Below are positions 8,709-34,080 of a DNA stretch of 37,978 bases, one piece after another. Both the position numbers and the translations under genes were made by a program. The DNA is from a virus, in the UHGV virus genome UHGV-0283905. One strand, written 5' to 3'. Below the pieces are notes generated by a model that searched no databases, was not told the DNA's origin, and was given only the letters and a program-made list of their open reading frames with translations. Position 1 is the stretch's first letter. Each line of letters begins with the position of its first letter.

Positions 8709-9959
8709 TTATTCCCCCGCCATCCACTTCTCAAACTTCGACGGGGAGAACGGAATCAGATCCGTATGCTCCCCGTCAATCCAAGAATCAATCATATCGG
8801 CCCACTGCTGCAACATGTAGGCGCGCTGTCTGGCGTATTCCGCTTTGTTATATACGGCGCGCACACCTTTCTGCTCATGTGCCAGAGCCTTTTCAATCCA
8901 GTCTGAAGGATAACCAGCCTCATGCAACAACGTACTGGCTGTACGGCGCATATCGTGTACGGTGAAGTCCTGAATATGCTCACCATCTTCATTTATTATT
9001 TTCACCGTTCTGTCGATCAGAGAGTTCAGTGCGGCATTAGATAATGGCTTCCGGAAATTGTAACGACCAGGAACCAGGTATTCACTTCCACCAGCGCACA
9101 TCTGCAACCCGACCAATATATCCTGTGCCTGTTTAGGCAGGTAAATAACGTGCGCCCGGCTTCCTTTCATGCGGTCTGAAGGAATTGTCCATGTCCATTT
9201 TTTAAAATCTATTTCATCCCACGTTGCATTGGTGAATTCGCCCTTACGAACCATAGTGATAAGCACCAGTTTTAAAGCCATTTTCATAGTGCCCATAGCA
9301 CCAATGGCATCCAGCGTGCGGAAGAACAGGCCAATTTCTTCTGGTGTCAGTGTTCGCTCTCGTGGTTTAAATATGGCGATAGACGAAGGTTTAATGTCAG
9401 CCGCAGGATTAAACAAACCATGACCACGGTCATTGGCGTGACGGTATACGCTGCTGATGATCTCCCTGGCCTGCACTGCTGTTGCCCGGCCACCGCGTTC
9501 GACAATCCGGTCACACAAATCACGAACCATCGATGTGGTAATTTCAGCCATCATTTTATTGCCAAGAACCGGAAGTATGTCACGGTCGATCACCGCCTGT
9601 TTCATTGCGCGGGTACTGTCAGCCAGGATGACGTGTTTCATATAACTGTCGGTATGTACCGCAAACGTCTCGGCACCACGAATCTTTTTGATACCGTCAC
9701 GTTTAGCCGCAGCCGGTGACTGGCCTGCTTTAAGCAGCTTCTTTGCAGCAATCAGTTCTTCTCGCGCTTCTGCCAGGCTGATACCGTCACGCCCATACTG
9801 CCCGATTACCAGCGTTTCGCGGCGACCGTTGATACGGTAGTCGTAGCGAAACGAGACCGTGCCTGACGTAAGCACAGCCACATACAGCCCGTCACGATCG
9901 GAAACTTTGTACAGTTTGTCCTGTGGCTTGAGGTTTTTTAATTTTGTATCGGTAAGCAC
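8709..9959 (-). CDS. int: tyrosine integrase, P4-type
   Basis: 416 aa; N-terminal arm-binding-like segment LKPQDKLYKVSDRDGLYVAV; C-terminal catalytic region with HDMRRTASTLL and AHEQKGVRAVY (catalytic Tyr). Confidence 0.9.
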   Translation of the reverse strand: MLTDTKLKNLKPQDKLYKVSDRDGLYVAVLTSGTVSFRYDYRINGRRETLVIGQYGRDGISLAEAREELIAAKKLLKAGQSPAAAKRDGIKKIRGAETFAVHTDSYMKHVILADSTRAMKQAVIDRDILPVLGNKMMAEITTSMVRDLCDRIVERGGRATAVQAREIISSVYRHANDRGHGLFNPAADIKPSSIAIFKPRERTLTPEEIGLFFRTLDAIGAMGTMKMALKLVLITMVRKGEFTNATWDEIDFKKWTWTIPSDRMKGSRAHVIYLPKQAQDILVGLQMCAGGSEYLVPGRYNFRKPLSNAALNSLIDRTVKIINEDGEHIQDFTVHDMRRTASTLLHEAGYPSDWIEKALAHEQKGVRAVYNKAEYARQRAYMLQQWADMIDSWIDGEHTDLIPFSPSKFEKWMAGE

Positions 9960-10276: not shown

Positions 10277-10759
10277 CTATCTGGTCAGTGTGTCGTACTG
10301 TTTTTCGCAGACTCTTCCGGCTTCGGCTGCCCGGTCAGCATACTCTGCCAGTTGTCTGTTTCTCTCGAGAGATTTGCTGAGCACGTCGGCAAGCAAAACT
10401 CCGGTGTCTGCGGCTGACGTCCCAGCGCCGACAATGGCGTTATACTGCCTGAGCTGCTCACGGATGGCAAAGAGTTGTTGCTGCAACCGGCCAGCGCGAG
10501 CGGCAGCATCAAGAGCATCATTGCGCGCCTGGTCGATCCTCTGCTGAGCTTCACGTTCATTGGCCACTTTCTCCTGTTCGTAGTACTGACGAACTTTGTC
10601 TTCTTCGGCTTTGCGGTCTTCTTCCGCCTGCGCATACCCGGCATCGTACTGGCGACTGCCGTGTATATTCCAGGAAACCACTCCGACGATGAACAGAGCA
10701 GCAAGCATCAACACAATAAGCATCTGTTTCCAATATGCTTTTACGAATGCCCAGATCAT
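10277..10759 (-). CDS. i-spanin (Rz-like)
   Basis: 160 aa; N-terminal TM helix MLIVLMLAALFIVGVV then charged coiled-coil periplasmic domain; directly downstream of the endolysin (ATGA overlap). Confidence 0.75.
   Translation of the reverse strand: MIWAFVKAYWKQMLIVLMLAALFIVGVVSWNIHGSRQYDAGYAQAEEDRKAEEDKVRQYYEQEKVANEREAQQRIDQARNDALDAAARAGRLQQQLFAIREQLRQYNAIVGAGTSAADTGVLLADVLSKSLERNRQLAEYADRAAEAGRVCEKQYDTLTR
10285..10560 (-). CDS. o-spanin (Rz1-like lipoprotein) embedded in the +1 frame of Rz
   Basis: Internal ATG at 10560 gives MNVKLSRGSTRRAMMLLMLPLALAGC... with lipobox LAGC and a Pro/Ser-rich mature part; AGGAG upstream; ORF table frame is 10285..10704. Confidence 0.6.
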   Translation of the reverse strand: MNVKLSRGSTRRAMMLLMLPLALAGCSNNSLPSVSSSGSITPLSALGRQPQTPEFCLPTCSANLSRETDNWQSMLTGQPKPEESAKNSTTH

Positions 10760-11385
10760 ATAGCCAGCACCTTACTGGCAGTGACGTACCGCGCGCGCCG
10801 GTCGTCGATGCCGTTCCGGCCACCATTGATAATCAGAGTTACACGTGCAATATCGCCGGTATACTTCATGCATCCTTTGCTGGCAAAGAACCACGCCGCG
10901 CTACGAGCCGCGTATTCGTCCTGCGCCAGCAGTTCAGGACTCTCCAGCAGGTCAACCTTAAGACCGTTTCCACAGTCACGATAGTTATTCAAACCGGTAA
11001 TCTGGATAAGTCCGCGACCACGGTAATTCCAGCCATCACCAGAGGCATTGTTACCCATGCGTTTGCTGTACACCAGATTTGCGATCGCGCGCTGGCGCTC
11101 GAGTGGCAATGGTGGCTCACCAGCACGGCGGCCCAGTGCGTTAGCCTGTCCCTGGGTGAGACGCCCAGCCCGAACGAAGTTAGCCAGTCCGGTGACGCTG
11201 TAGTTGAAATTTTCCTGCAACCGGTTGAAGCCACCAGACTCATGCCCGACCTGAGCAATAAACATTGCCTGATCTTCGGGTTTGCTGATACCAAACTCTT
11301 TCATCGCAGAAGTTATATGCGAGAACCAGCGTGCGGCCAGCGCCTCGCTAATACCAGCAGCTCGCTGGAATTGTTTAATCTCCAT
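10756..11385 (-). CDS. endolysin, glycoside hydrolase family 19 (chitinase-like)
   Basis: Start at internal ATG 11385 (MEIKQFQRAAG...); motifs FIAQVGHESGGF and YRGRGLIQITGLNNY; resembles epsilon15/SPN1S-like endolysins from memory; the longer table ORF (to 11616) is a hydrophobic extension overlapping the holin gene. Confidence 0.85.
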   Translation of the reverse strand: MEIKQFQRAAGISEALAARWFSHITSAMKEFGISKPEDQAMFIAQVGHESGGFNRLQENFNYSVTGLANFVRAGRLTQGQANALGRRAGEPPLPLERQRAIANLVYSKRMGNNASGDGWNYRGRGLIQITGLNNYRDCGNGLKVDLLESPELLAQDEYAARSAAWFFASKGCMKYTGDIARVTLIINGGRNGIDDRRARYVTASKVLAI

Positions 11386-11683
11386 GTTTAGACCTCGATA
11401 TTTTGAAAATATGAACAACGTTACCGCGTGTTTTAATAACCGCGGCAAGCATGACAGCGTTGATAATGACCTCAGATAAATCCACAGCCATTGGCGTGCG
11501 TAACCAGATTGCATAGACGACACGAACAGGAATACTTGCCGCAGCAACAATAAGGAAATAAGCAAGCCACCCTCCCCATCTTCGATGTTGAGAGCCGTTA
11601 CGCCGGAATGTGACAACGCGAATTGCTATGCCAGTACAAATAACTGCATTGGTGATAAGCAAAAAAAACTCATGCGTTACCAT
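11375..11683 (-). CDS. holin-like membrane protein
   Basis: 102 aa, three predicted TM segments, charged C-terminus, ends 11 nt into the endolysin start. Confidence 0.5.
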   Translation of the reverse strand: MVTHEFFLLITNAVICTGIAIRVVTFRRNGSQHRRWGGWLAYFLIVAAASIPVRVVYAIWLRTPMAVDLSEVIINAVMLAAVIKTRGNVVHIFKISRSKHGD

Positions 11684-12074
11684 CGTCTTTTCTCCCCGGA
11701 ATTAACTCGCGTGGATTATCGGAACGGTGATAGAGCCAGATGCCAATACGCACGGCGACAATTGCTGACACGAATGCGCCTGCAGAGAAAACAATCCCTT
11801 TTTCAAAAGAGTCCTGCGTGATGGTAGGGATCAGGCTGGCTATGCCGATAAGAATTGATGCTGCTGGTTTGTAAAAGAGAAGGCCGCAAAGAAAGCTGAG
11901 CATCGACAGGAGCACCCGGCGACGGATGGGGTACTCTACTGCAGAGGTAACAAAAATTACCGCCCCAGCCAAAGCCCCTAAAGCAACCTCCGGAGGGACA
12001 CCTGCAATAACCGCAGCAAGAGAACTAACACTAAGCCACTGATTTGAAGTTTCATTGGTTAGTTGGAATGACAT
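11670..12074 (-). CDS. multi-pass membrane protein (second holin or antiholin candidate)
   Basis: 134 aa, 4-5 hydrophobic segments, first gene of the lysis cassette. Confidence 0.45.
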   Translation of the reverse strand: MSFQLTNETSNQWLSVSSLAAVIAGVPPEVALGALAGAVIFVTSAVEYPIRRRVLLSMLSFLCGLLFYKPAASILIGIASLIPTITQDSFEKGIVFSAGAFVSAIVAVRIGIWLYHRSDNPRELIPGRKDDGNA

Positions 12075-12146: not shown

Positions 12147-14609
12147 TCAATTCCCTGTTAATTGCAAAACTTGCTCTTCCAGCTTTTTAACCCTGCGTCT
12201 CATCATCGCAGATTCCAGAATCAGAGCCTCTTCATAACGGATACCGTAACATTCACCAGCCTCGACGGCTTCGCGTACCAGAACCTTTGTCTGTATAAGT
12301 GGGTAAACTCCTGCAGAATGCTCTTCTTCCGTCACATCCCTGTATTCTGCCGGGGTCTCATTCCACTTGTCATAACAGATAAATGCCAGTCGTGACACAT
12401 CTATGCCTTCATTCTGAAATACACTGATAACATGCTGCGCAACTGCACCAAAGTGCCATCTTGCTCCGTCTTTACCTTTCACTTCGATCCTGTCAAGGTA
12501 CTGGTATGAAACCCATTCCACTCTTTCCCATGCGTCCAGTATTTTCTCATCAATAACCTCTGGAGCAGTCTTGAAACGCGCATCGGACAGCACCGTAAAC
12601 GCTGACTGGGTAAATCCCCCCGACCATGCACGACCAGCCAACCCAAGAGAATAAGTATTCGTTGTCGATGGTGTCATGGCTGAATCAGAAAACTGTATAT
12701 ATTCTGAATTTCCAGTAGATATTCGAATATTTCCATTTATTAGCGACATAGTGCCTTTAGTATTATCACTATTGAATAATTTCAATTGCGAACTTATACC
12801 GCCTCCCACAGCCAGAGATACATCGCCTTCAGCAAGCATTCTGAATTTATCTGCAGAAACAAGCGTCTGGTTAGCAAGGTTAAAATATTTAACCCACCAT
12901 TCAAAACGCCCTGACATAGTCCCAACGTACTGACCAAGCGCAGGGACGTGAACAACATTGCTATTTGTAGTGCCGTCTATACTGGAAATACCAGTCACCG
13001 CTGATGCAGAACTCAGAATATTATTTCTGTCACCCGGATGTTTAATTTCAACAAAGTTCCTGATACACCCTTCCTCGAAGGTAACCACGCCGGAAGAACT
13101 ATACATGGGGAATATTGACGCATAATTACTGCGTGCAGCATCTAAGAAACGAATGGTTGTAGATGCCTGCAGATCTCCTGATTCATTTTTCCCATCACAC
13201 CCAGTCATTAGAATATTACTGGCAATATTATTATTTCCCTGAACGGTGACGCCGTGCGCCTGCTTTGCGTCCGATTCAGAGTAATCAACCAGCACATCCG
13301 AAATCAGGTTACCAGTCCCCTTGCCAACAACTACTGCGGCGTATTTTGGGTTGTTAGCCATTACACTGCTAATGATATTATTCGTTGGGGCAGTTTCCGT
13401 CTCAGTTCCATTGTAAACAACGTGCTGACACTCTTCACCAATAACATTGCTGACAATGTTATATTTTGCTGCTGTTTTAAGTTCCACTGCACCAAACTGA
13501 GGATAATTTCTGGCTATCACACCATCAATTAGCGTATTTTGCGATGAATCAAAAAGCACACAACCTGCTTTTTTATTATTTGCGAACCCTAAATACTCTC
13601 CTCTTATATCTCTAACAATGTAACCTGACGGAATACCATTATCCGGATAAGCGATCAAGCTAAATCCTGGTCCTCGCGTATTTGTAAATCTGATATTTTT
13701 AACCGATACATCATGGCCACCTGAAAATGACACCTGGTGTCCCTGCACACTATCATCTGATTTATTTCCCATAATTGTTAGCGTACTAAGCATGCCACCA
13801 TCGGGCATGTTAAAAACCAGATGATTACCATCTCTGTCATACTGTTTTATCGTTCCCCCACCTGTTCCGTACAAGCCACAACGTGAAAGAGAAACTAAAG
13901 ATGTATTGAATACCCCTTCCGGAACAAAAACACTGCTAAACGAATGTAATGATTTTGTAAAAGCATCCTTGTTATCATTTAAGATTCCATTTTGAGCTCC
14001 AAAATCCTTAATGCTGACACCATCACGCATCTTATCCTGGAACGTTCTGTATACCGCTCCAGAACCATACTGAATAAACCAACCAAAACCACCAATAACT
14101 CCGGCGATTGCAGCATCGACATAATTACGCATTGAGCGATTATTTACAGCGTCCTGCTCAAGTGATGGATCGGCAAGGTTAGATATTCTGTTTTGCTTTG
14201 CATCGTAATATTTTGCAAGCAAAGATGGTTTCATCAATGCACGTCTGAACCACCCAAAACATCGCTGGATCAGCATCGTCAGGTAGTCAAATGCATCCTC
14301 ATGAACTTCGGGGAAAAATTTTCCCTGATTGCGAAGATCAGTCTCCTGCACCACATCAAGCACACGCTCTATCGTGATTCGCCAGCCAGCAGCAAGCGGC
14401 GACGGAAGAACCACTGCACCGCCACTATAAGTTCCCGCCCCTGTTACCGTATAACCAGCATCCAGCACTAGTTTTGTAACGTTACCGTTAAGGTCAGACA
14501 CCTGAACAACCAGGTCGGATTTTTTGAAAATACGGAAGGTATACGGAAATGATGTCGTAACGCCGTTACCTGTGTATTCGTTGTGGTCAACTTCGGTTGA
14601 GACCGTCAT
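12147..14609 (-). CDS. tailspike / tail fibre with central beta-helix (depolymerase-like) and C-terminal S74-type intramolecular chaperone
   Basis: 820 aa; conserved N-terminal particle-binding segment; AT-richer middle with beta-helix-like repeats; C-terminal LSDARFK...RWHFGAVAQ autoproteolytic chaperone motif. Confidence 0.85.
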   Translation of the reverse strand: MTVSTEVDHNEYTGNGVTTSFPYTFRIFKKSDLVVQVSDLNGNVTKLVLDAGYTVTGAGTYSGGAVVLPSPLAAGWRITIERVLDVVQETDLRNQGKFFPEVHEDAFDYLTMLIQRCFGWFRRALMKPSLLAKYYDAKQNRISNLADPSLEQDAVNNRSMRNYVDAAIAGVIGGFGWFIQYGSGAVYRTFQDKMRDGVSIKDFGAQNGILNDNKDAFTKSLHSFSSVFVPEGVFNTSLVSLSRCGLYGTGGGTIKQYDRDGNHLVFNMPDGGMLSTLTIMGNKSDDSVQGHQVSFSGGHDVSVKNIRFTNTRGPGFSLIAYPDNGIPSGYIVRDIRGEYLGFANNKKAGCVLFDSSQNTLIDGVIARNYPQFGAVELKTAAKYNIVSNVIGEECQHVVYNGTETETAPTNNIISSVMANNPKYAAVVVGKGTGNLISDVLVDYSESDAKQAHGVTVQGNNNIASNILMTGCDGKNESGDLQASTTIRFLDAARSNYASIFPMYSSSGVVTFEEGCIRNFVEIKHPGDRNNILSSASAVTGISSIDGTTNSNVVHVPALGQYVGTMSGRFEWWVKYFNLANQTLVSADKFRMLAEGDVSLAVGGGISSQLKLFNSDNTKGTMSLINGNIRISTGNSEYIQFSDSAMTPSTTNTYSLGLAGRAWSGGFTQSAFTVLSDARFKTAPEVIDEKILDAWERVEWVSYQYLDRIEVKGKDGARWHFGAVAQHVISVFQNEGIDVSRLAFICYDKWNETPAEYRDVTEEEHSAGVYPLIQTKVLVREAVEAGECYGIRYEEALILESAMMRRRVKKLEEQVLQLTGN

Positions 14610-14713
14610 GTTAAATCTCCAGATAGTCGCAGCACCCGTTGCGCCGCATATCTGGTTATTCTATTACCCAAAAAACCATATATGGATAGAAAGACTGTGA
14701 ATATGAATAGATA

Positions 14714-14728
14714 TTACCTTTCAGGTAA
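14714..14728. promoter_or_regulatory. dyad site TTACCtttcaGGTAA upstream of the LexA-box promoter
   Basis: Exact motif; identical in sequence to the site at 33667..33681. Confidence 0.5.
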
Positions 14729-14746
14729 TTTGCAAAACGTGCTGGA

Positions 14747-15063: not shown

Positions 15064-15094
15064 GGTTTGCAATTACCAAGTGGAGTGCTTATAT

Positions 15095-15109
15095 TTACCT
15101 TTGAGGTAA
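15095..15109. promoter_or_regulatory. dyad site TTACCtttgaGGTAA
   Basis: Exact motif, flanked by inverted GGAGTGC / GCACTCC. Confidence 0.45.
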
Positions 15110-15200
15110 ATTTACATCGCACTCCTCTTATGCCATAGTAATCGGGCACTGGCAAAATCCAGTGCCGGGATTGGCGTCCCGGGTTACTAAGTGGCGCATA

Positions 15201-15222
15201 CCACGCCAGACGTGGTTTTTTT
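15201..15222 (+). terminator. intrinsic terminator inside the intergenic region between the two antirepressor-locus genes
   Basis: CCACG-ccaga-CGTGG hairpin followed by TTTTTTT. Confidence 0.7.
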
Positions 15223-15351
15223 ATGCGTTAAGCACAGCTCAGCTATATCCGAATTATGGTGGGCTGGGCAGGGGTCCGAAAGGACGCCGGTACCACTTAG
15301 GCCGGTACGCCAACCTTGTCCAGTTCACCACCAGTAATTGGCGTTGCGGTG

Positions 15352-15365: not shown

Positions 15366-15383
15366 TAAGTGGAGATAACCACC

Positions 15384-16094
15384 ATGGCTAATGCTCAAAC
15401 TGCCATCTTCAAATTTGAATCTGTTAACCCTATCCGTTCCATCATTATCGATGGCCAACCATGGTTTGTAGCCCAAGACGTTTGTAGTGCGCTGCGTATC
15501 CAAAACGTCACCCAAGCACTTGAAAAACTGGATGATGATGAAAGGTCTATGTTCAACATAGGGCATGAACATCGTGCAATTTTTGACAGCCGAGTAAAAG
15601 AGATCAACATCATCTCCGAGTCAGGCCTCTACACACTGATCCTCCGCTGCCGCGACGCAGTGACACCAGGCACTATCCCCTACCGCTTTCGCAAATGGGT
15701 TACAGGTGATGTTCTTCCTCAGATCCGTCGCACCGGAAGTTACATTAAAAACTCGCTCCCGCAGGAAGAACGCATAAAGATGGTTGCCGACCAGGTAGCC
15801 AGCGCCACAGCATCAGCAGTGATGCAGGCAATGAAGGTAGAGAACAAAACCTACAGCGCCCCACTGAAGCCCGGCTACCGCAGCCTGATTCATTCGCCGT
15901 CTGGTGTTCTTGGCCTGACGGAGAACTCACTGCTGATGAATCTGCTGAACCAGTTACAGGACGACGGGCATGACGTATCGGGCGCGGCGGCGGAGCTGAC
16001 CACCATGTTCTGCTACATCGTCGGTGTGAGCAAATGCCTGCGTGATATCCAGACGCACGCGGAGTACATCAGCGACAAAGCAGGGTTCTTCTGA
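15384..16094 (+). CDS. Bro-N domain protein (antirepressor-type) with C-terminal domain paralogous to the upstream 85-aa protein
   Basis: ATG 15384 with GGAGA RBS (table start is GTG 15369); N-terminus FKFESVNPIRSIIIDGQPWFVAQDVCSALRI fits Bro-N. Confidence 0.75.
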   Translation: MANAQTAIFKFESVNPIRSIIIDGQPWFVAQDVCSALRIQNVTQALEKLDDDERSMFNIGHEHRAIFDSRVKEINIISESGLYTLILRCRDAVTPGTIPYRFRKWVTGDVLPQIRRTGSYIKNSLPQEERIKMVADQVASATASAVMQAMKVENKTYSAPLKPGYRSLIHSPSGVLGLTENSLLMNLLNQLQDDGHDVSGAAAELTTMFCYIVGVSKCLRDIQTHAEYISDKAGFF

Positions 16095-16187: not shown

Positions 16188-16355
16188 ATGACAGCGTTGA
16201 AAAATCGTACTCAGCACAATGAACAAGCCAAGCAATGCTGGGATGTCATTGGAAAAGTTATGCTTGGTCGCGCAAGCAAAGAGCGCGACAAGGATATGGT
16301 TTACCAGACAGGAACATCTTTTAGCGACTTCAAGGCGGCATTTCGCTCCAAATAG
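16188..16355 (+). CDS. small hypothetical protein (55 aa); not in the ORF track
   Basis: ATG 16188 with AGGAGG RBS; translation MTALKNRTQHNEQAKQCWDVIGKVMLGRASKERDKDMVYQTGTSFSDFKAAFRSK; stop TAG 16353..16355. Confidence 0.4.
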   Translation: MTALKNRTQHNEQAKQCWDVIGKVMLGRASKERDKDMVYQTGTSFSDFKAAFRSK

Positions 16356-16375
16356 AAGCACATCAGGAGTTTTCC

Positions 16376-16819
16376 TTGAAGTTTAACATTAGAATATCTA
16401 ATAGTTTTCTACATGGGGAAAGCAACACCCCTTTCGCTGTAGACGGACCTTTCCTTACTGATGATGAAATAAAAATCATACAAAGGTTTTTAGAGGATGT
16501 TGCCAATGGAAGGGCGCTTGTTGGAAAAAACAAGCCATCGTGGGTTGATGATAACCATGATAAAATTCCCGGCTCAGACAATTATGAGCAAGAGAATTAT
16601 TGGCATTATCATTGTGGGCCAACATGGTATCCAAACACATTTAAGAATTATACCATTAACTTAAATTTCAACCCTGGCGGAATGCATTCTAATGAATGCA
16701 TTCATTATGCAAAAAATGATAATGAAATTGTCATTGTTGGATTTTCAAGAGAACACATACCTTTCCTTTCATCAGATGGAAACAACAATCCGCTTTTTAA
16801 TGATGAAGAAGAAGAATAA
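16376..16819 (+). CDS. AT-rich acidic hypothetical protein (moron), 147 aa, TTG start
   Basis: Markedly lower GC than neighbours by eye; CAGGAG 6 nt before TTG; about 23 Asp/Glu vs about 11 Lys/Arg; C-terminal NDEEEE; followed by a strong terminator. Confidence 0.5.
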   Translation: MKFNIRISNSFLHGESNTPFAVDGPFLTDDEIKIIQRFLEDVANGRALVGKNKPSWVDDNHDKIPGSDNYEQENYWHYHCGPTWYPNTFKNYTINLNFNPGGMHSNECIHYAKNDNEIVIVGFSREHIPFLSSDGNNNPLFNDEEEE

Positions 16820-16840
16820 GCCCGCGCTGCGGGCTTTTTT
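16819..16840 (+). terminator. intrinsic terminator after the AT-rich moron
   Basis: AGCCCGC-gct-GCGGGCT hairpin plus TTTTTT. Confidence 0.75.
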
Positions 16841-16912
16841 GTGGACGAAACAAAAGTCAGTGCTACACTCATTGACGCCACATTGAGGTGGCTTATAGAT
16901 GGAAATTTCACA

Positions 16913-17074
16913 ATGAAAAAAGCATTTGCTGCACTGTTCGTTTTGTTGTCTCTGGTAGCTTCAACTCAGGCCTTTGCCGGTCGTTGTCAGCACGACAGCG
17001 ATACTGCCGCTGACGGCTCCCGCTGCGGTGGGCGTTCTGCGGATTCCCGCCCGGGCGGCGGTGGCATTCGTTAA
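16913..17074 (+). CDS. small secreted peptide (53 aa) with signal peptide
   Basis: Internal ATG of table ORF 16841..17074; MKKAFAALFVLLSLVASTQAFA then a 31-aa Gly/Arg/Asp-rich part with two Cys. Confidence 0.4.
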   Translation: MKKAFAALFVLLSLVASTQAFAGRCQHDSDTAADGSRCGGRSADSRPGGGGIR

Positions 17075-17096
17075 AAACAAGGCCGCGAAAGCGGCC
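17073..17096 (-). terminator. hairpin GGCCGC-gaaa-GCGGCC with minus-strand U-run (bidirectional-like terminator)
   Basis: Minus-strand RNA reads hairpin then UUGUUUUU; the palindrome GTGACATGTCAC lies 1 nt away. Confidence 0.6.
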
Positions 17097-17097
17097 T

Positions 17098-17109
17098 GTG
17101 ACATGTCAC
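17098..17109. promoter_or_regulatory. 12-bp perfect palindrome GTGACATGTCAC (copy 1 of 3)
   Basis: Overlaps the stop codon of the 98-aa membrane protein gene; adjacent to terminator hairpin. Confidence 0.5.
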
Positions 17110-17402
17110 GCTCTTTTTCTGAATGATAGCCATTCGAAAAATGATGACATTCCACCGCAGACAATAGCAAAGATGATCCCACCAAAGAAGAGAAGGCCAG
17201 CCTGCCACCACTCCCACCGCCATACATCCACAGCGCCAACCATACCAACAATAGCTCCAACAAATGGAATATAGCTCACGATGAAAGCAATGGGGGCTGC
17301 AATTATCCAGTGCAATCCCCACCATGATTCAAGCCCAGCCATAATTGCTGCCAACTGAAAAAGACCAACGACGATATAAACAATGAATCCTATAGCTTGC
17401 AT
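17106..17402 (-). CDS. small multi-pass membrane protein
   Basis: 98 aa, 3-4 hydrophobic segments, Trp-rich loops; last gene of this minus-strand block. Confidence 0.5.
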   Translation of the reverse strand: MQAIGFIVYIVVGLFQLAAIMAGLESWWGLHWIIAAPIAFIVSYIPFVGAIVGMVGAVDVWRWEWWQAGLLFFGGIIFAIVCGGMSSFFEWLSFRKRA

Positions 17403-17441
17403 GTAGTCACCTATTTACCCAGTAAAAATCAGAGGCCTCCC

Positions 17442-17588
17442 CTCAATAAGGCTTGCAACAAGAACTATTCCCTGCACAACAAAGATGAACCAGCAAATAG
17501 CTTGAGTCTGAGGGTTAAGAAAATATTTGTAGCGGTCAATAAATAACAACCCACCAAAAATTATCACACTCAAAATAATTAAAAACAC
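17442..17588 (-). CDS. possible small membrane protein (48 aa, GTG start); not in the ORF track
   Basis: AAGGAAG 5 nt upstream of GTG 17588; hydrophobic translation VFLIILSVIIFGGLLFIDRYKYFLNPQTQAICWFIFVVQGIVLCCKPY; hand-translated, may be non-coding. Confidence 0.25.
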
Positions 17589-17597
17589 AACACTTCC

Positions 17598-20072
17598 TTA
17601 TTGCGGAGTGACATCCTGAGGTCGCCACCAGTATGTCTGGTTAAACTCTTTCTTCGAACGTTGCTCCATTTTACGCAAATAGCCTGGTGAAAAATACTCC
17701 TGCATCTGGTTAAAAATCATGTGATCGAGAGCCGCCTTCAAGTACCAGAGATTCGCACCTGGCATCAAACCTTTCCCCAGCTTCACCAGATCACCACCAG
17801 TCTGCTCACTCTTCCCTTCCACAGCATTTAACGGTATGCCCTGAGCAATCTTCACTACGTCATCAACCAGACCAGCTACCGGGCCAAGCATCGACGCCAG
17901 CGCGCCGCTTCCGTACCTAGTGTGATCTGACAATAAAAAGTCACCGTAAAGGCCAAGACCACCACCTTTCAGTAGAGCACCAAGCCAAAATTTAGCAGCA
18001 TCTTCTCCTGTCATCTCGCGAGGATTACGACCAGACGCAAGGTCGTTAAGTTGCTGCGACAAAGCGCCAAGAATGGTCGTACTGGCAATAAACGTCGCAA
18101 TATATGCCGCACGCCCACCAGCAGACGGCATACCCATAGCGCGTGACCAGTGACGCATAACCACCGAGATAGGGAACGATTTAAACAGGAAAACACTTCT
18201 CGTTAATTCACCTTTCCATGTTCCACGCTGAATACCAGAACCGGTTATCAGTTGCTCACGTGCTCCTGGTGTAATAACAGCCATATCAACTTCTTCAGTT
18301 ACGGCACCGAGCAGTTTACGCATTGCCTCAAATTTCACGCGTTCAGGCTCACCAAGATGTTTAACTGCTGAATCAGGGATACGCATAATGCTTTCCGGTG
18401 TCAGCATCGTATTATTACCGTTCCCCCAGTCCTCCTGTTGCGCCAGCTTCCATACGCTCCAGTCTGTGTCAGTAATCCCTTTGCTTTTCAGGATACGAAA
18501 ATCAGAGTCATCGAGGCTACGAAGGTCTGGTGTCCGTGACACTACTTCTCCCAGGCTTCCCATCATGGTTACGCCATAGGCGCGCTTGTGCGCATCTGAC
18601 CATGCTGTAAGCCCACTGGCACGCATTACCGCCGTTGCCGCCCAACGAGACACTGACGGCCCCATATTATCCATCGCCCAGCGGTTAACGCTGCCAAGTA
18701 GAGATTCCATCGCCAGACCAGCGCGGCGCGCCCGCGCAAGTTCTGTACGGTTCGTTGGGTCCATAGCTTCAAGCTGGTTGCGGAATAACTGGTTCATTGG
18801 AAGGTTGGTCACCTTCGCAGACAGATACATGGTTCCAAGATCAGAGAACGATGATAGCAACGCAGATCCGAGTCTGCTGGCAACCAGCCAGTTGCGGATA
18901 TTGTCAGACCATCGCGCGATGTGCGGATTCGCTACAGGCTGTGTCTTTCCGGAAATAAAGTTGTACAGATTCTCTGTGTTGTTCGCCAGCCGCTCGACTT
19001 TACCGGTTTTACTCGGGTTAGCTGTTGCCGTTTCTGCCTTCACCTGATCAAGAAGAGAGCGGAAAACATGATCGGGGTTTGGGCCATATGTTTCCACCAG
19101 TGCAATATCTTTACTGATACCTTCCAGGTGACCGACCATGATTTCCCATAGAGAGCGATCGCCATAAAGTTGCTGATATTGCAGATAGGAATCTGCATCT
19201 TTGAAATGTATCTGTCGTGATGCATTACCACGGTTAGCACGTGCGCCGGAAATTCGCATTCCGGTATCAGTAAGCTTATTCAGCCCACCAGTAGCGATCG
19301 TGTTATAAGCCTCTCCAAGAAATGCAGACAACTCGGCATCGTTCATCAGTTGTCCATCGGCTCGGATATAATATTTGCGATCCAGCTTACCTATAACATC
19401 GCTAACCCACTTATCCTTTGATACCGCCCCAACCTTTTCCATAGAATGATGTTGAGGGAACCCCCAGTTTTCGAGATAGCCAATGTCCCCACCAGCATCA
19501 TTAAACCGGCGGCGCAGTAGATCTGTCACTTCTCTCCACGCCTTAGCACCTTTTCTTGCTTTAGCATTGCCAGTATTTTGCCCTCGCATTTCATATACCA
19601 GGTCACGTACGCCCGCTTCATCTTCAAACAGACCAAAAAAGCGAGGATCAACTGCTTCGAATGCCTCCTGCAATTGACTCAATGCATAATCACGAGTGGC
19701 TTTTGTTCTGGACTCAACAGAGAGGAAATTCGATTTACCGTCTGCATTAAAAGCAATAGTACGGTTAAGAGCGCCAAGTTTCCCATCAGCCCCTTGATAG
19801 CTATTGATAAATTTATCCAATCTCTGACGTGCGGCTATAGTGAGGGCCACACGACGTTTCTTTAATGCCGCTTCTCGCTGTAATTCTTCAGATGCCAATT
19901 GTGCTGCACGATATAGCCGCTCTGATTCGGAAAGTTGTCTCCACGACATCGGGTCATCACGAGCAATGGAGCGCATATTTCGATAAATGCGGTCTTCAAT
20001 GCTCTGTATTTCTCGCGCCGTTAACGTGCGCTGCGCCGCCTGCTGGACCGCTTGTATACATTCCTGTCTCAT
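17598..20072 (-). CDS. large internal virion / ejection protein
   Basis: 824 aa, position after the other internal virion genes in a T7-like order; hydrophobic Gly-rich segment near the C-terminus. Confidence 0.55.
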   Translation of the reverse strand: MRQECIQAVQQAAQRTLTAREIQSIEDRIYRNMRSIARDDPMSWRQLSESERLYRAAQLASEELQREAALKKRRVALTIAARQRLDKFINSYQGADGKLGALNRTIAFNADGKSNFLSVESRTKATRDYALSQLQEAFEAVDPRFFGLFEDEAGVRDLVYEMRGQNTGNAKARKGAKAWREVTDLLRRRFNDAGGDIGYLENWGFPQHHSMEKVGAVSKDKWVSDVIGKLDRKYYIRADGQLMNDAELSAFLGEAYNTIATGGLNKLTDTGMRISGARANRGNASRQIHFKDADSYLQYQQLYGDRSLWEIMVGHLEGISKDIALVETYGPNPDHVFRSLLDQVKAETATANPSKTGKVERLANNTENLYNFISGKTQPVANPHIARWSDNIRNWLVASRLGSALLSSFSDLGTMYLSAKVTNLPMNQLFRNQLEAMDPTNRTELARARRAGLAMESLLGSVNRWAMDNMGPSVSRWAATAVMRASGLTAWSDAHKRAYGVTMMGSLGEVVSRTPDLRSLDDSDFRILKSKGITDTDWSVWKLAQQEDWGNGNNTMLTPESIMRIPDSAVKHLGEPERVKFEAMRKLLGAVTEEVDMAVITPGAREQLITGSGIQRGTWKGELTRSVFLFKSFPISVVMRHWSRAMGMPSAGGRAAYIATFIASTTILGALSQQLNDLASGRNPREMTGEDAAKFWLGALLKGGGLGLYGDFLLSDHTRYGSGALASMLGPVAGLVDDVVKIAQGIPLNAVEGKSEQTGGDLVKLGKGLMPGANLWYLKAALDHMIFNQMQEYFSPGYLRKMEQRSKKEFNQTYWWRPQDVTPQ

Positions 20073-34003: not shown

Positions 34004-34080
34004 GTGGCATTAGCTCAGTTGGACAGAGCAACCGCCTTCTAAGCGGTTGGTCGCAGGTTCGAATCCTGCATGCCACGCCA
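34004..34080 (+). tRNA. tRNA-Arg (anticodon UCU), CCA encoded
   Basis: Hand-folded cloverleaf: acceptor GTGGCAT/ATGCCAC, D-arm GCTC-AGTTGGACA-GAGC, anticodon arm ACCGC-CTTCTAA-GCGGT, T-arm GCAGG-TTCGAAT-CCTGC, discriminator G, CCA. Confidence 0.85.

Follow-up and report, generated by a model that had tools for sequence, protein, structure and literature searches.

Three small envelope-protein genes at the junction between the late operon and the accessory block of a Uetakevirus prophage

The question raised by positions 16913-17588 of the window (the whole 37,978-nucleotide stretch analysed, UHGV virus genome UHGV-0283905) is whether the small open reading frames found there are genes, and what their products do. 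A preliminary description had placed a small secreted peptide and two small membrane proteins at the end of a structural block, and the layout confirms this. Sequence comparison, together with the annotation of phiV10 and epsilon15, assigns the window to a Uetakevirus (epsilon15/phiV10-like) prophage of E. coli: phages HEMP4 and phiv142-3 as well as E. coli prophages contain near-identical DNA, and the E. coli ECSC054 chromosome carries an identical copy of the region. The region is the junction between the minus-strand late operon of virion and ejection-protein genes and a plus-strand accessory block that is controlled like the immI region of P1 and P22, with IsrK and C4 RNAs preceding a BRO-N gene in an Rfam search. 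Gene order runs from the ejection-protein genes through the small envelope genes and an immI-like antirepressor region to the tailspike. The final large gene of the late operon is IVP-D-like, its homologues epsilon15 gp17 and phiV10 gp20 belonging to the T7 IVP-D family (PMC4819975). The features of the locus are as follows.

16818..16836, plus strand: intrinsic terminator, 8-bp GC stem followed by TTTTTTG (terminator scan)
16842..16869, plus strand: candidate sigma-70 promoter of the peptide gene, inferred from sequence and alignment only
16877..16892, plus strand: conserved 5′-UTR hairpin GCCAC-ATTGAG-GTGGC (alignment)
16913..17074, plus strand: 53-aa pre-peptide gene (WP_000708858.1; phrog_14503)
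16913-16978, plus strand: part of the 53-aa gene coding for the predicted signal peptide
16979-17071, plus strand: part coding for the predicted mature 31-aa peptide, including Cys25 and Cys38
17072-17074, plus strand: stop codon of the 53-aa gene
17080..17097, no strand assigned: GC hairpin GGCCGC-GAAA-GCGGCC (terminator scan)
17106..17402, minus strand: 98-aa predicted inner-membrane protein gene (WP_001147905.1; phrog_3075), Shine-Dalgarno sequence AGGTGA upstream
17415..17588, minus strand: 57-aa predicted two-TM protein gene with a GTG start, Shine-Dalgarno sequence AAGGAAG at 17593-17599
17598..20072, minus strand: 824-aa virion/ejection protein gene (phrog_684), homologue of epsilon15 gp17 and phiV10 gp20

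The 53-aa product, which reads MKKAFAALFVLLSLVASTQAFA up to the predicted cleavage site and GRCQHDSDTAADGSRCGGRSADSRPGGGGIR beyond it, has the N-terminal pattern of a classical Sec/SPase-I signal peptide, with KK in the n-region, a hydrophobic core and an AxA motif (AFA/G), and the predicted mature part is, as had been proposed, a Gly/Arg/Asp-rich stretch of 31 aa with two cysteines. An AF2 model of this mature part, which would have a mass of about 3.1 kDa, was mostly disordered and of low confidence (pLDDT 46-62). Upstream, the terminator at 16818..16836 closes the accessory operon (BRO-N, 55-aa and 147-aa genes) and insulates the peptide gene from it. The candidate promoter (TGGACG, a 16-nt spacer and TG-c-TACACT, an extended -10) fits at 8 of 12 positions, under the scan threshold, and in the aligned Klebsiella and Pectobacterium copies its -10 hexamer reads TACAAT, TAAACT or TACGCT. 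The 5′-UTR hairpin, which would form the 5′ end of the predicted peptide mRNA, has a compensatory variant (GCCGC..GCGG) in Pectobacterium. No RNA family was found by Rfam within 16840-17600; sub-threshold matches to the Trp and Phe leaders at 16732-16842 reflect the terminator hairpin.

Both insulation from upstream transcription (16818-16836) and a downstream terminator (17080-17097) are present, and the 53-aa gene is a stand-alone moron, since terminators flank it, the -10 element and the UTR hairpin ahead of it are kept, its presence is patchy and its contexts vary. The gene is absent from epsilon15, is reduced to a 3′ remnant in phiV10, and is found in TL-2011b, in Klebsiella phages, in a Pectobacterium tail region (amid tail genes) and in a different E. 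coli prophage. It follows YafO, RelB/YafQ or DUF2335 cassettes, or is convergent with Ant/Arc or other genes, and all Enterobacterales loci inspected were prophage accessory slots.

The hairpin between the two convergent units had been described as a bidirectional terminator. This holds for the minus strand, where the hairpin is a canonical intrinsic terminator of the late operon with its T-run (TGTTTTT) at 17073-17079. On the plus-strand side no T-run directly follows the stem; a second small 5-bp palindrome lies at 17098-17109, followed by CTCTTTTTC, and termination of the plus-strand transcript at 17080-17097 is plausible, if less canonical.

On the opposite strand, the 98-aa multi-pass membrane protein of the preliminary description was found at 17106..17402. 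The structure model (pLDDT 91.7) has helices at residues 2-28, 32-42, 46-59 and 65-97, corresponding to three predicted membrane-spanning segments of which the middle one (32-59) is kinked, with Trp-rich loops (ESWWGLHW and DVWRWEWWQA) and a basic C-terminal tail (FRKRA). A Foldseek search of the PDB and BFVD with this model returned nothing at E ≤ 0.001. The protein is a full-length member of PHROG 3075 (E = 2e-54), with 52 homologue clusters. Its family is large and uncharacterised, and its gene is an optional cargo gene: phiV10, epsilon15 and many relatives lack it, some prophages carry it singly next to an integrase, and outside phages family members occur fused to RDD, DUF805 and MORN domains.

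The second membrane ORF, earlier put at 48 aa from a GTG start, proved to be real, with a length of 57 aa rather than 48 aa; its homologues (12 clusters) are 56-58 aa long, keep the start position as GTG, TTG or ATG, and have a Shine-Dalgarno sequence 6 nt upstream. The protein has two hydrophobic segments. Its gene begins 9 nt past the stop codon of the IVP-D-like gene. At the end of the late operon the genes are separated by gaps of 9 and 12 nt, each has its own Shine-Dalgarno sequence, and a single terminator follows them. A promoter scan of the window found no promoter-like site ahead of the 57-aa and 98-aa genes; this pair appears to share the late-operon transcript, from the tail of which the two products are translated.

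Every Uetakevirus inspected has a small two-TM gene directly 3′ of the IVP-D gene, with epsilon15 gp18 (64 aa), phiV10 gp21 (46 aa; PhiV10p21, 'putative integral membrane protein'), a 66-aa Cronobacter protein and the 57-aa protein described here as occupants. Like the 57-aa gene, those for gp18 and gp21 are the first after gp17 and gp20, respectively, and precede the late terminator, and their products fall in the same size class (46-64 aa) and share the predicted two-TM hairpin with a short basic loop. Unlike this arrangement, sequence is not conserved: gp18 and gp21 have no similarity to the 57-aa protein, hhalign of the 57-aa family against each of them gave a probability of 0.3%, and no homology was detected among the occupants compared. 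One Cronobacter copy of the 57-aa gene contains a premature stop, which argues that the gene is dispensable.

Codon-level comparison shows purifying selection on each of the three ORFs, and they are real genes, far beyond chance ORFs. In the 53-aa gene synonymous sites were saturated, with dN of 0.05-0.16 in the mature part; the 98-aa gene gave omega values of 0.02-0.04 in the four comparisons with unsaturated dS, and the 57-aa ORF gave 0.13-0.26. The anatomy and the coding status of the three genes can be held with high confidence. Of 5426 complete E. coli genomes, 465 contained the peptide gene and 216 the block of the 98-aa and 57-aa genes, and in only 152 did the peptide gene adjoin the 98-aa gene; from these counts the three genes are neighbours, not a unit. 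They are genuine, independently mobile small envelope-protein genes that adjoin but form two transcription units and recombine independently.

The peptide belongs to a wider family (57 homologue clusters). Its core, C-x4-D-x-A-x-DGSRCG-x-R…RPGG, is a nearly invariant module of 25-30 residues that always lies at the C-terminus, mostly preceded by an export or lipoprotein signal and in some copies at the end of a longer protein. Carriers include Mesorhizobium, Devosia, Bradyrhizobium, Agrobacterium and Methylobacterium among the Rhizobiales, cyanobacteria, Vibrio, Bacteriovorax, Polyangiaceae and other diderm bacteria. Across homologues the signal peptide drifts, including its hydrophobic core, and the mature core stays invariant; the alanines at -3 and -1 (AFA/G) are kept as AxA in most members. 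The 53-aa protein of the window has the same sequence as RefSeq WP_000708858.1, the accession used in the annotation of TL-2011b and of the E. coli genomes examined, and matches PHROG 14503 over residues 1-53 of 53 (E = 2.3e-40); 57 homologue clusters bear the NCBI name 'transmembrane anchored protein'. As with PHROG 3075 for the 98-aa protein, this is only a name and assigns no function. The module is covered by no Pfam or NCBIfam model, weak NCBIfam matches to HxsA3 and MarB (E = 0.07-0.16) involve the signal peptide only and are due to chance, and a PDB sequence search with the peptide profile gave nothing at E ≤ 10. Pfam and NCBIfam scans of all three proteins gave nothing significant, a PADLOC scan of all three gave nothing, and no homology was found between any of them and characterised exclusion or defence proteins. 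A literature search returned nothing on these genes or proteins; the transcriptome paper on LF82 'Gally' concerns a P22-like phage and is not relevant.

As to what the three proteins do, the genomic logic that had suggested a superinfection-exclusion or host-interaction role is reasonable, and by analogy envelope-level superinfection exclusion is our best guess, a tentative one, because the layout parallels that of P22 (ejection genes, sieA, immI, tailspike). On the P22 map, which reads gene 16, sieA, mnt-arc-ant, gene 9, sieA neighbours immI, runs convergently to gene 16 and is transcribed from a promoter of its own (PMC10883804). As with SieA, the 98-aa and 57-aa proteins are predicted to be small multi-pass inner-membrane proteins, their genes lie between the last ejection gene and the antirepressor (immI) region, upstream of the tailspike, and several unrelated sequence types fill the same slot. 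The 53-aa gene is like sieA in being convergent with the ejection operon and in having its own, here candidate, promoter. The likeness does not extend further: SieA has 162-164 aa and hhalign with the 98-aa family gave a probability of 0.2%, the 98-aa and 57-aa genes run in the direction of the late operon and lack a separate promoter, and the gene in the sieA-like orientation encodes a predicted soluble exported peptide, not a membrane protein.

By this proposal the peptide would be expressed from the prophage, exported to the periplasm and cleaved after AFA, with the Cys25-Cys38 loop probably closed by DsbA, and would bind a target shared by diderm envelopes. In a phage context its most likely benefit would be an altered envelope that hinders DNA entry by rival phages, which would make the peptide a periplasmic exclusion factor in the slot of P22 sieA. 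The phage-encoded proteins T4 Spackle (Sp) and P1 Sim are exported by Sec, lose their signal peptide and counter incoming phage from the periplasm, and the mechanism proposed for the peptide is analogous in logic. Unlike these proteins, to which it has no homology, the peptide has only about 31 aa, is mostly disordered in the model and is not phage-restricted; a T4_Spackle match was seen in 1 of 31 family members (E = 0.065) and was rejected. The two membrane proteins would insert into the inner membrane of the infected cell, and the slot proteins may act where ejection proteins cross that membrane, either in exclusion or in control of the phage's own ejection proteins; action at this site fits the occupation of the slot by interchangeable, non-homologous two-TM proteins. 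Classical Sie proteins need expression in the lysogen, and lysogen expression is unsupported for the 57-aa and 98-aa genes because no promoter-like site precedes them.

The family beyond phages (Rhizobiales, cyanobacteria) fits a conserved envelope target rather than phage exclusion specifically, and the peptide may instead be a general periplasmic accessory factor of diderm bacteria, such as an ion- or ligand-binding or enzyme-modulating mini-domain, carried as lysogenic-conversion cargo by phages and mobile elements with no exclusion role. We regard this as doubtful. The occurrence of the module in many diderm genera, behind a signal or at the C-terminus of a longer protein, is in its favour. 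So is the absence of a conserved neighbour among 57 species outside the Uetakevirus block: non-enterobacterial neighbours include LysR, glycosyltransferase, FGase and RPE65 genes, many of the Rhizobiales and cyanobacterial members sit outside recognisable prophages, and with so many members outside prophages and without a conserved neighbour a generic periplasmic role is equally possible. However, many other non-enterobacterial neighbours are of mobile or defence type (resolvase, TIR, PrimPol, GmrSD), and the Enterobacterales loci inspected are, as noted, prophage slots. By inspection, the D-x-A-x-D-G-x-x-C stretch resembles the DxDxDG-type loop of Excalibur (PF05901), which is likewise a small, exported, Cys-bracketed loop with D-x-[D/A]-x-D-G-x-x-C, but in the peptide the central Asp of this calcium-binding motif is Ala and the loop is shorter, and none of 31 family members matched the Pfam Excalibur model even at E ≤ 10. 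The module would mark out a new family of exported diderm mini-proteins, widespread but so far uncurated, which temperate phages of Enterobacterales have captured as a stand-alone moron. A bolder reading, in which no smaller periplasmic anti-phage or envelope effector than the phage copy is known, is a long shot.

For the two membrane proteins, envelope-level exclusion competes with a role in the phage's own late programme, either in lysis timing (holin- or antiholin-like) or in the handling of membrane-active ejection proteins during assembly, which we consider unlikely. Both genes abut the late operon on the same strand, with the Shine-Dalgarno sequences, single terminator and missing promoter match described above, and the constant two-TM gene after the IVP-D gene would suit such a role. 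The 98-aa topology, with three hydrophobic segments and the basic FRKRA C-terminus, fits class I holins, which have three TM helices arranged N-out/C-in and a charged C-terminus, but is not holin-specific, and the Phage_holin_5_2 match of this protein (E = 0.027) reached 15.2 bits against a cut-off of 29.2 bits, was found in only 1 of 48 family members and is due to chance. Moreover, the phage already has a lysis cassette at 10.3-12.1 kb, comprising two holin-family genes, a GH19 endolysin and a DUF2514 protein, and the 98-aa gene stands outside it, about 5 kb away and not beside the endolysin. The optional presence of the 98-aa gene, sometimes alone next to an integrase, and its family's non-phage RDD, DUF805 and MORN fusions also count against a late function, and non-homologous slot occupants would be unusual for an essential morphogenetic one.

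An extracellular role, in which the peptide would pass out of the cell by a route such as TolC and serve as a signal or effector in phage-phage communication or directed at the host, is very improbable. The heat-stable enterotoxin STa is exported through TolC, a precedent for such a route, and the peptide is a small, predicted Sec-exported product with two cysteines encoded beside the IsrK/C4-controlled antirepressor region. However, its mature sequence is almost invariant across phage genera and non-phage copies, the opposite of arbitrium-type phage-specific codes, no receptor or processing gene is linked to it, and it has no similarity to enterotoxins; onward export as a signal tied to the neighbouring antirepressor switch is the less likely course. 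Finally, the notion that one or more of the ORFs arose by chance or as a by-product of a conserved terminator or RNA, which could draw on PGAP leaving the 57-aa ORF uncalled and on the 3′ end of the 53-aa ORF abutting a conserved terminator and surviving as the phiV10 remnant, is effectively refuted by the purifying selection on all three, by length, start position and Shine-Dalgarno sequence being kept across genera, by dozens of homologue clusters and by the empty Rfam interval.

Uetakevirus prophages are common in E. coli, Klebsiella and Salmonella, and if any of the three proteins blocks phage entry, this would matter for phage therapy and typing in these hosts; exclusion, if true, would add non-homologous counterparts to the P22 SieA paradigm. 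The peptide gene is carried by about 1 in 12 complete E. coli genomes and the membrane-protein pair by 1 in 25, for three proteins with no assigned function, curated family or paper. The near-invariance of the module, which spans enterobacterial prophages, Rhizobiales and cyanobacteria, suggests that its target in the envelope is conserved. Two points of annotation follow. The NCBI name of the 53-aa protein, 'transmembrane anchored protein', is probably wrong, as its N-terminus has the features typical of a signal peptide that is cleaved off. In addition, PGAP does not call the 57-aa gene in those annotated E. coli genomes that were inspected, the identical ECSC054 chromosome among them.

The window carries a podovirus prophage of the genus Uetakevirus (epsilon15/phiV10-like), and positions 16300-17700 are 100% identical to the E. 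coli ECSC054 chromosome and 98.5-98.6% identical to the Escherichia phages HEMP4 and phiv142-3. The late structural genes lie on the - strand in a block that ends with an 824-aa protein homologous to phiV10 gp20 and to epsilon15 gp17, which was assigned to the T7 IVP-D family (ejection protein, internal-virion-protein D) by Hardies et al. (PMC4819975). A + strand accessory block separates the tailspike from this ejection gene, and comprises a gp19-like gene, a BRO-N gene, a 55-aa/147-aa pair and, last, the 53-aa peptide gene. Beyond the late block, in the same region as the tailspike, lie a pair of genes of the holin family, the gene of a GH19 endolysin and that of an integrase. The features were located as follows:

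12147..14609, tailspike
15369..16094, + strand, BRO-N gene, with Rfam-significant IsrK and C4 antisense RNAs in front
16188..16355, + strand, 55-aa gene, phrog_8607
16376..16819, + strand, 147-aa gene, phrog_5954
16913..17074, + strand, 53-aa gene, predicted exported-peptide precursor
17106..17402, - strand, 98-aa gene, predicted membrane protein
17415..17588, - strand, 57-aa gene, predicted membrane protein
17598..20072, - strand, 824-aa IVP-D homologue

Three genuine genes, divided between two transcription units, lie at the boundary of the two blocks. All three ORFs are present where the preliminary description placed them; one product is predicted to be exported and the other two to reside in the inner membrane. 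The 53-aa ORF begins with a Sec signal of textbook form (MKK, 13-residue hydrophobic core, AFA↓G), which leaves 31 residues of mature peptide with two cysteines (Cys25 and Cys38), and the 98-aa ORF is multi-pass, with three hydrophobic segments. The third ORF encodes 57 aa rather than 48 aa; its GTG start has AAGGAAG 5′ of it at 6-nt spacing. Homologues of this ORF are 56-58 aa long, and at the same position start with TTG in Klebsiella, Cronobacter and Salmonella and with ATG in K. oxytoca, always with a Shine-Dalgarno sequence (SD). All three genes are under purifying selection (mature peptide dN 0.05-0.16, synonymous sites saturated; 98-aa gene omega 0.02-0.04 in four comparisons with unsaturated dS; 57-aa gene omega 0.13-0.26). 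Such small accessory envelope genes are an ordinary find in temperate phage; database entries already exist as hypothetical proteins (WP_000708858.1, WP_001147905.1; PHROGs 14503 and 3075), and searches of databases and literature found no curated family, structure or publication for the three proteins.

The hairpin at 17080-17097, described earlier as a bidirectional terminator, is canonical on the - strand but not on the + strand, where it is followed by a second palindrome and then CTCTTTTTC. This perfect 12-bp palindrome, GTGACATGTCAC (17098-17109), directly follows the hairpin, overlaps the 98-aa stop codon and is kept even in TL-2011b, which is without the 98-aa gene; it could serve as a further terminator stem, or as a site for protein binding or recombination.

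The peptide, 57-aa and 98-aa genes are each mobile independently. A strong terminator (16818-16836) insulates the 53-aa gene on its upstream side, followed by a candidate promoter (TGGACG, 16 nt, TGcTACACT; -10 hexamer conserved as TACAAT, TAAACT or TACGCT in relatives) and a putative 5′-UTR hairpin, for which Pectobacterium shows a compensatory variant. At all enterobacterial loci inspected the gene comes last among the + strand genes of the accessory block, and its neighbours vary, both upstream (toxin cassettes of the YafO or RelB/YafQ kind, DUF2335, unknown pairs) and among the convergent genes downstream (98-aa gene, Ant/Arc, 186-204-aa hypothetical proteins, tail genes of a different phage type). 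The epsilon15 genome lacks it, and in phiV10 the ORF is reduced to its last ~20 nt and terminator; the 53-aa gene is therefore a classical moron. This phiV10 remnant (comparison locus L002, 5001-5060), in which the ORF end …GGCGGCATTCGTTAA is fused to the shared terminator, marks a mosaic or deletion junction inside the peptide gene. The gene was found in 465 of 5426 complete E. coli genomes, with the 98-aa gene adjoining in only 152.

Beyond what the preliminary description recognised, the sequence places the peptide in a broad, undescribed family of probable exported mini-proteins with an invariant module. The 53-aa protein forms 57 clusters in a large protein database, all from Enterobacterales and all named 'transmembrane anchored protein', in which G-x-CQHDxDTAADGSRCGGRSADSRPGG is nearly invariant and the signal peptide drifts. 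When species were scanned by pattern, each represented by a single genome, the module C-x4-D-x-A-[AS]-D-G-S-R-C-G-x-R-...-R-P-G-G turned up in 57 of them, including Mesorhizobium, Devosia, Bradyrhizobium, Agrobacterium, Methylobacterium, several cyanobacteria, Vibrio, Bacteriovorax and a Polyangiaceae MAG; all named carriers are diderms. The module is C-terminal in every case and, in nearly all full-length reconstructions, follows a signal peptide or lipoprotein signal, or ends a 140-aa protein. No conserved neighbour was found among the 57 species, and sampled neighbours were ordinary genes mixed with mobile or defence genes (resolvase, TIR, PrimPol, GmrSD). Pfam, NCBIfam and PDB searches with the peptide returned no matching entry, and the AF2 model is confident for the signal helix alone.

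The 98-aa gene is optional cargo. It begins 12 nt past the 57-aa gene with its own SD, directly follows the ejection gene in a Salmonella prophage, comes in Yersinia after an interposed ORF that was called on the other strand, and stands alone beside Bro-N and integrase genes in a metagenomic prophage. Its family comprises 52 clusters in Enterobacterales, with identity down to 44% and strongly conserved motifs (G13, Q16, P46, G53, G56-A57, W61, W63, W65, LFFG). A profile search of 1.84 billion representatives gave 749 relatives, some of them fusions with RDD, DUF805 or MORN modules and one a Lentisphaeria protein; family members matched no Pfam family consistently. A holin match was rejected as chance. 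The AF2 model is confident and helical (pLDDT 91.7; helices 2-28, 32-42, 46-59, 65-97), with no structural neighbours in PDB or BFVD.

The unannotated 57-aa gene, whose slot also went unremarked in the preliminary description, is this prophage's version of a conserved post-IVP-D slot held by unrelated two-transmembrane (2-TM) proteins. In E. coli, Klebsiella, Salmonella and K. oxytoca it starts 9-10 nt past the IVP-D gene, and in other Uetakeviruses the slot holds unrelated 2-TM proteins: epsilon15 gp18 (64 aa), phiV10 gp21 (46 aa), and a 48-aa gp21-like and a 66-aa protein in Cronobacter prophages. Profile comparison showed no homology of the 57-aa family to gp18 or gp21, and the flanking gp17 3′ end is near-identical between phiV10 and the window; the slot is thus a recombination cassette. 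A Cronobacter prophage (L012, 5560-5676, - strand) carries a 57-aa homologue with a CAG-to-TAG nonsense codon at position 39 beside an intact 98-aa gene, so the 57-aa gene is dispensable there.

The window order of ejection genes, small envelope genes, antirepressor/immI-like region and tailspike resembles that of P22 (gene 16, sieA, mnt-arc-ant, gene 9). Exclusion of superinfecting phage would be the most plausible prophage benefit, because the position is like that of sieA and periplasmic exclusion factors such as T4 Spackle and P1 Sim provide a precedent. Cleavage of the peptide would fall after AFA, oxidation would close a disulfide loop of 14 residues, its target would be something common to diderm envelopes, and the prophage would gain through altered envelope behaviour. 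Interchangeable, non-homologous occupants beside the ejection genes point to a factor at work where the inner membrane is met by ejection proteins, as is the case for P22 SieA; mutations that escape SieA map to two of these proteins, 16 and 20 (PMC10883804). This envelope-level exclusion mechanism as a whole is offered tentatively. A generic periplasmic role for the peptide is only slightly less probable. A little less likely again, the membrane proteins would serve the phage's own late programme; the window scan found no promoter for their genes, which therefore look like late genes. That the exported peptide is an extracellular signal or effector is very improbable, and the chance that these conserved ORFs are non-genes is negligible.

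Within the accessory block, matches above the Rfam gathering score to the Hfq-binding sRNA IsrK (15146-15222, 67.7 bits) and C4 antisense RNA (15252-15335, 66 bits) lie in the stretch 15133-15335 (+ strand) upstream of the BRO-N gene, with a c4 a1b1 target match slightly below threshold (15133-15185); this is antisense control of the P1/P7 immI type, directed at an antirepressor-like gene within a Uetakevirus prophage. The near-identical palindromes ATTACCTTTCAGGTAAT (14713-14729, tailspike/gp19 divergent region) and ATTTACCTTTGAGGTAAAT (15094-15112, just 5′ of the IsrK/C4 region) are likely repressor operators; an epsilon15 repressor site is annotated at the equivalent place. The 55-aa/147-aa pair fills the slot that holds YafO or RelB/YafQ toxin-antitoxin cassettes or DUF2335 in relatives, and could likewise be a cassette of two genes for addiction or defence. 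A tRNA-Arg (anticodon TCT; 34004-34080, + strand) occupies a gap among phage genes of the - strand and is thus encoded opposite to its neighbours. The integrase (8709..9959, - strand) adjoins the lysis cassette (10277..12074, - strand), in keeping with the vegetative map of epsilon15, which has attP between the two. Either the prophage junction is therefore elsewhere, or the window has the arrangement of a phage genome.
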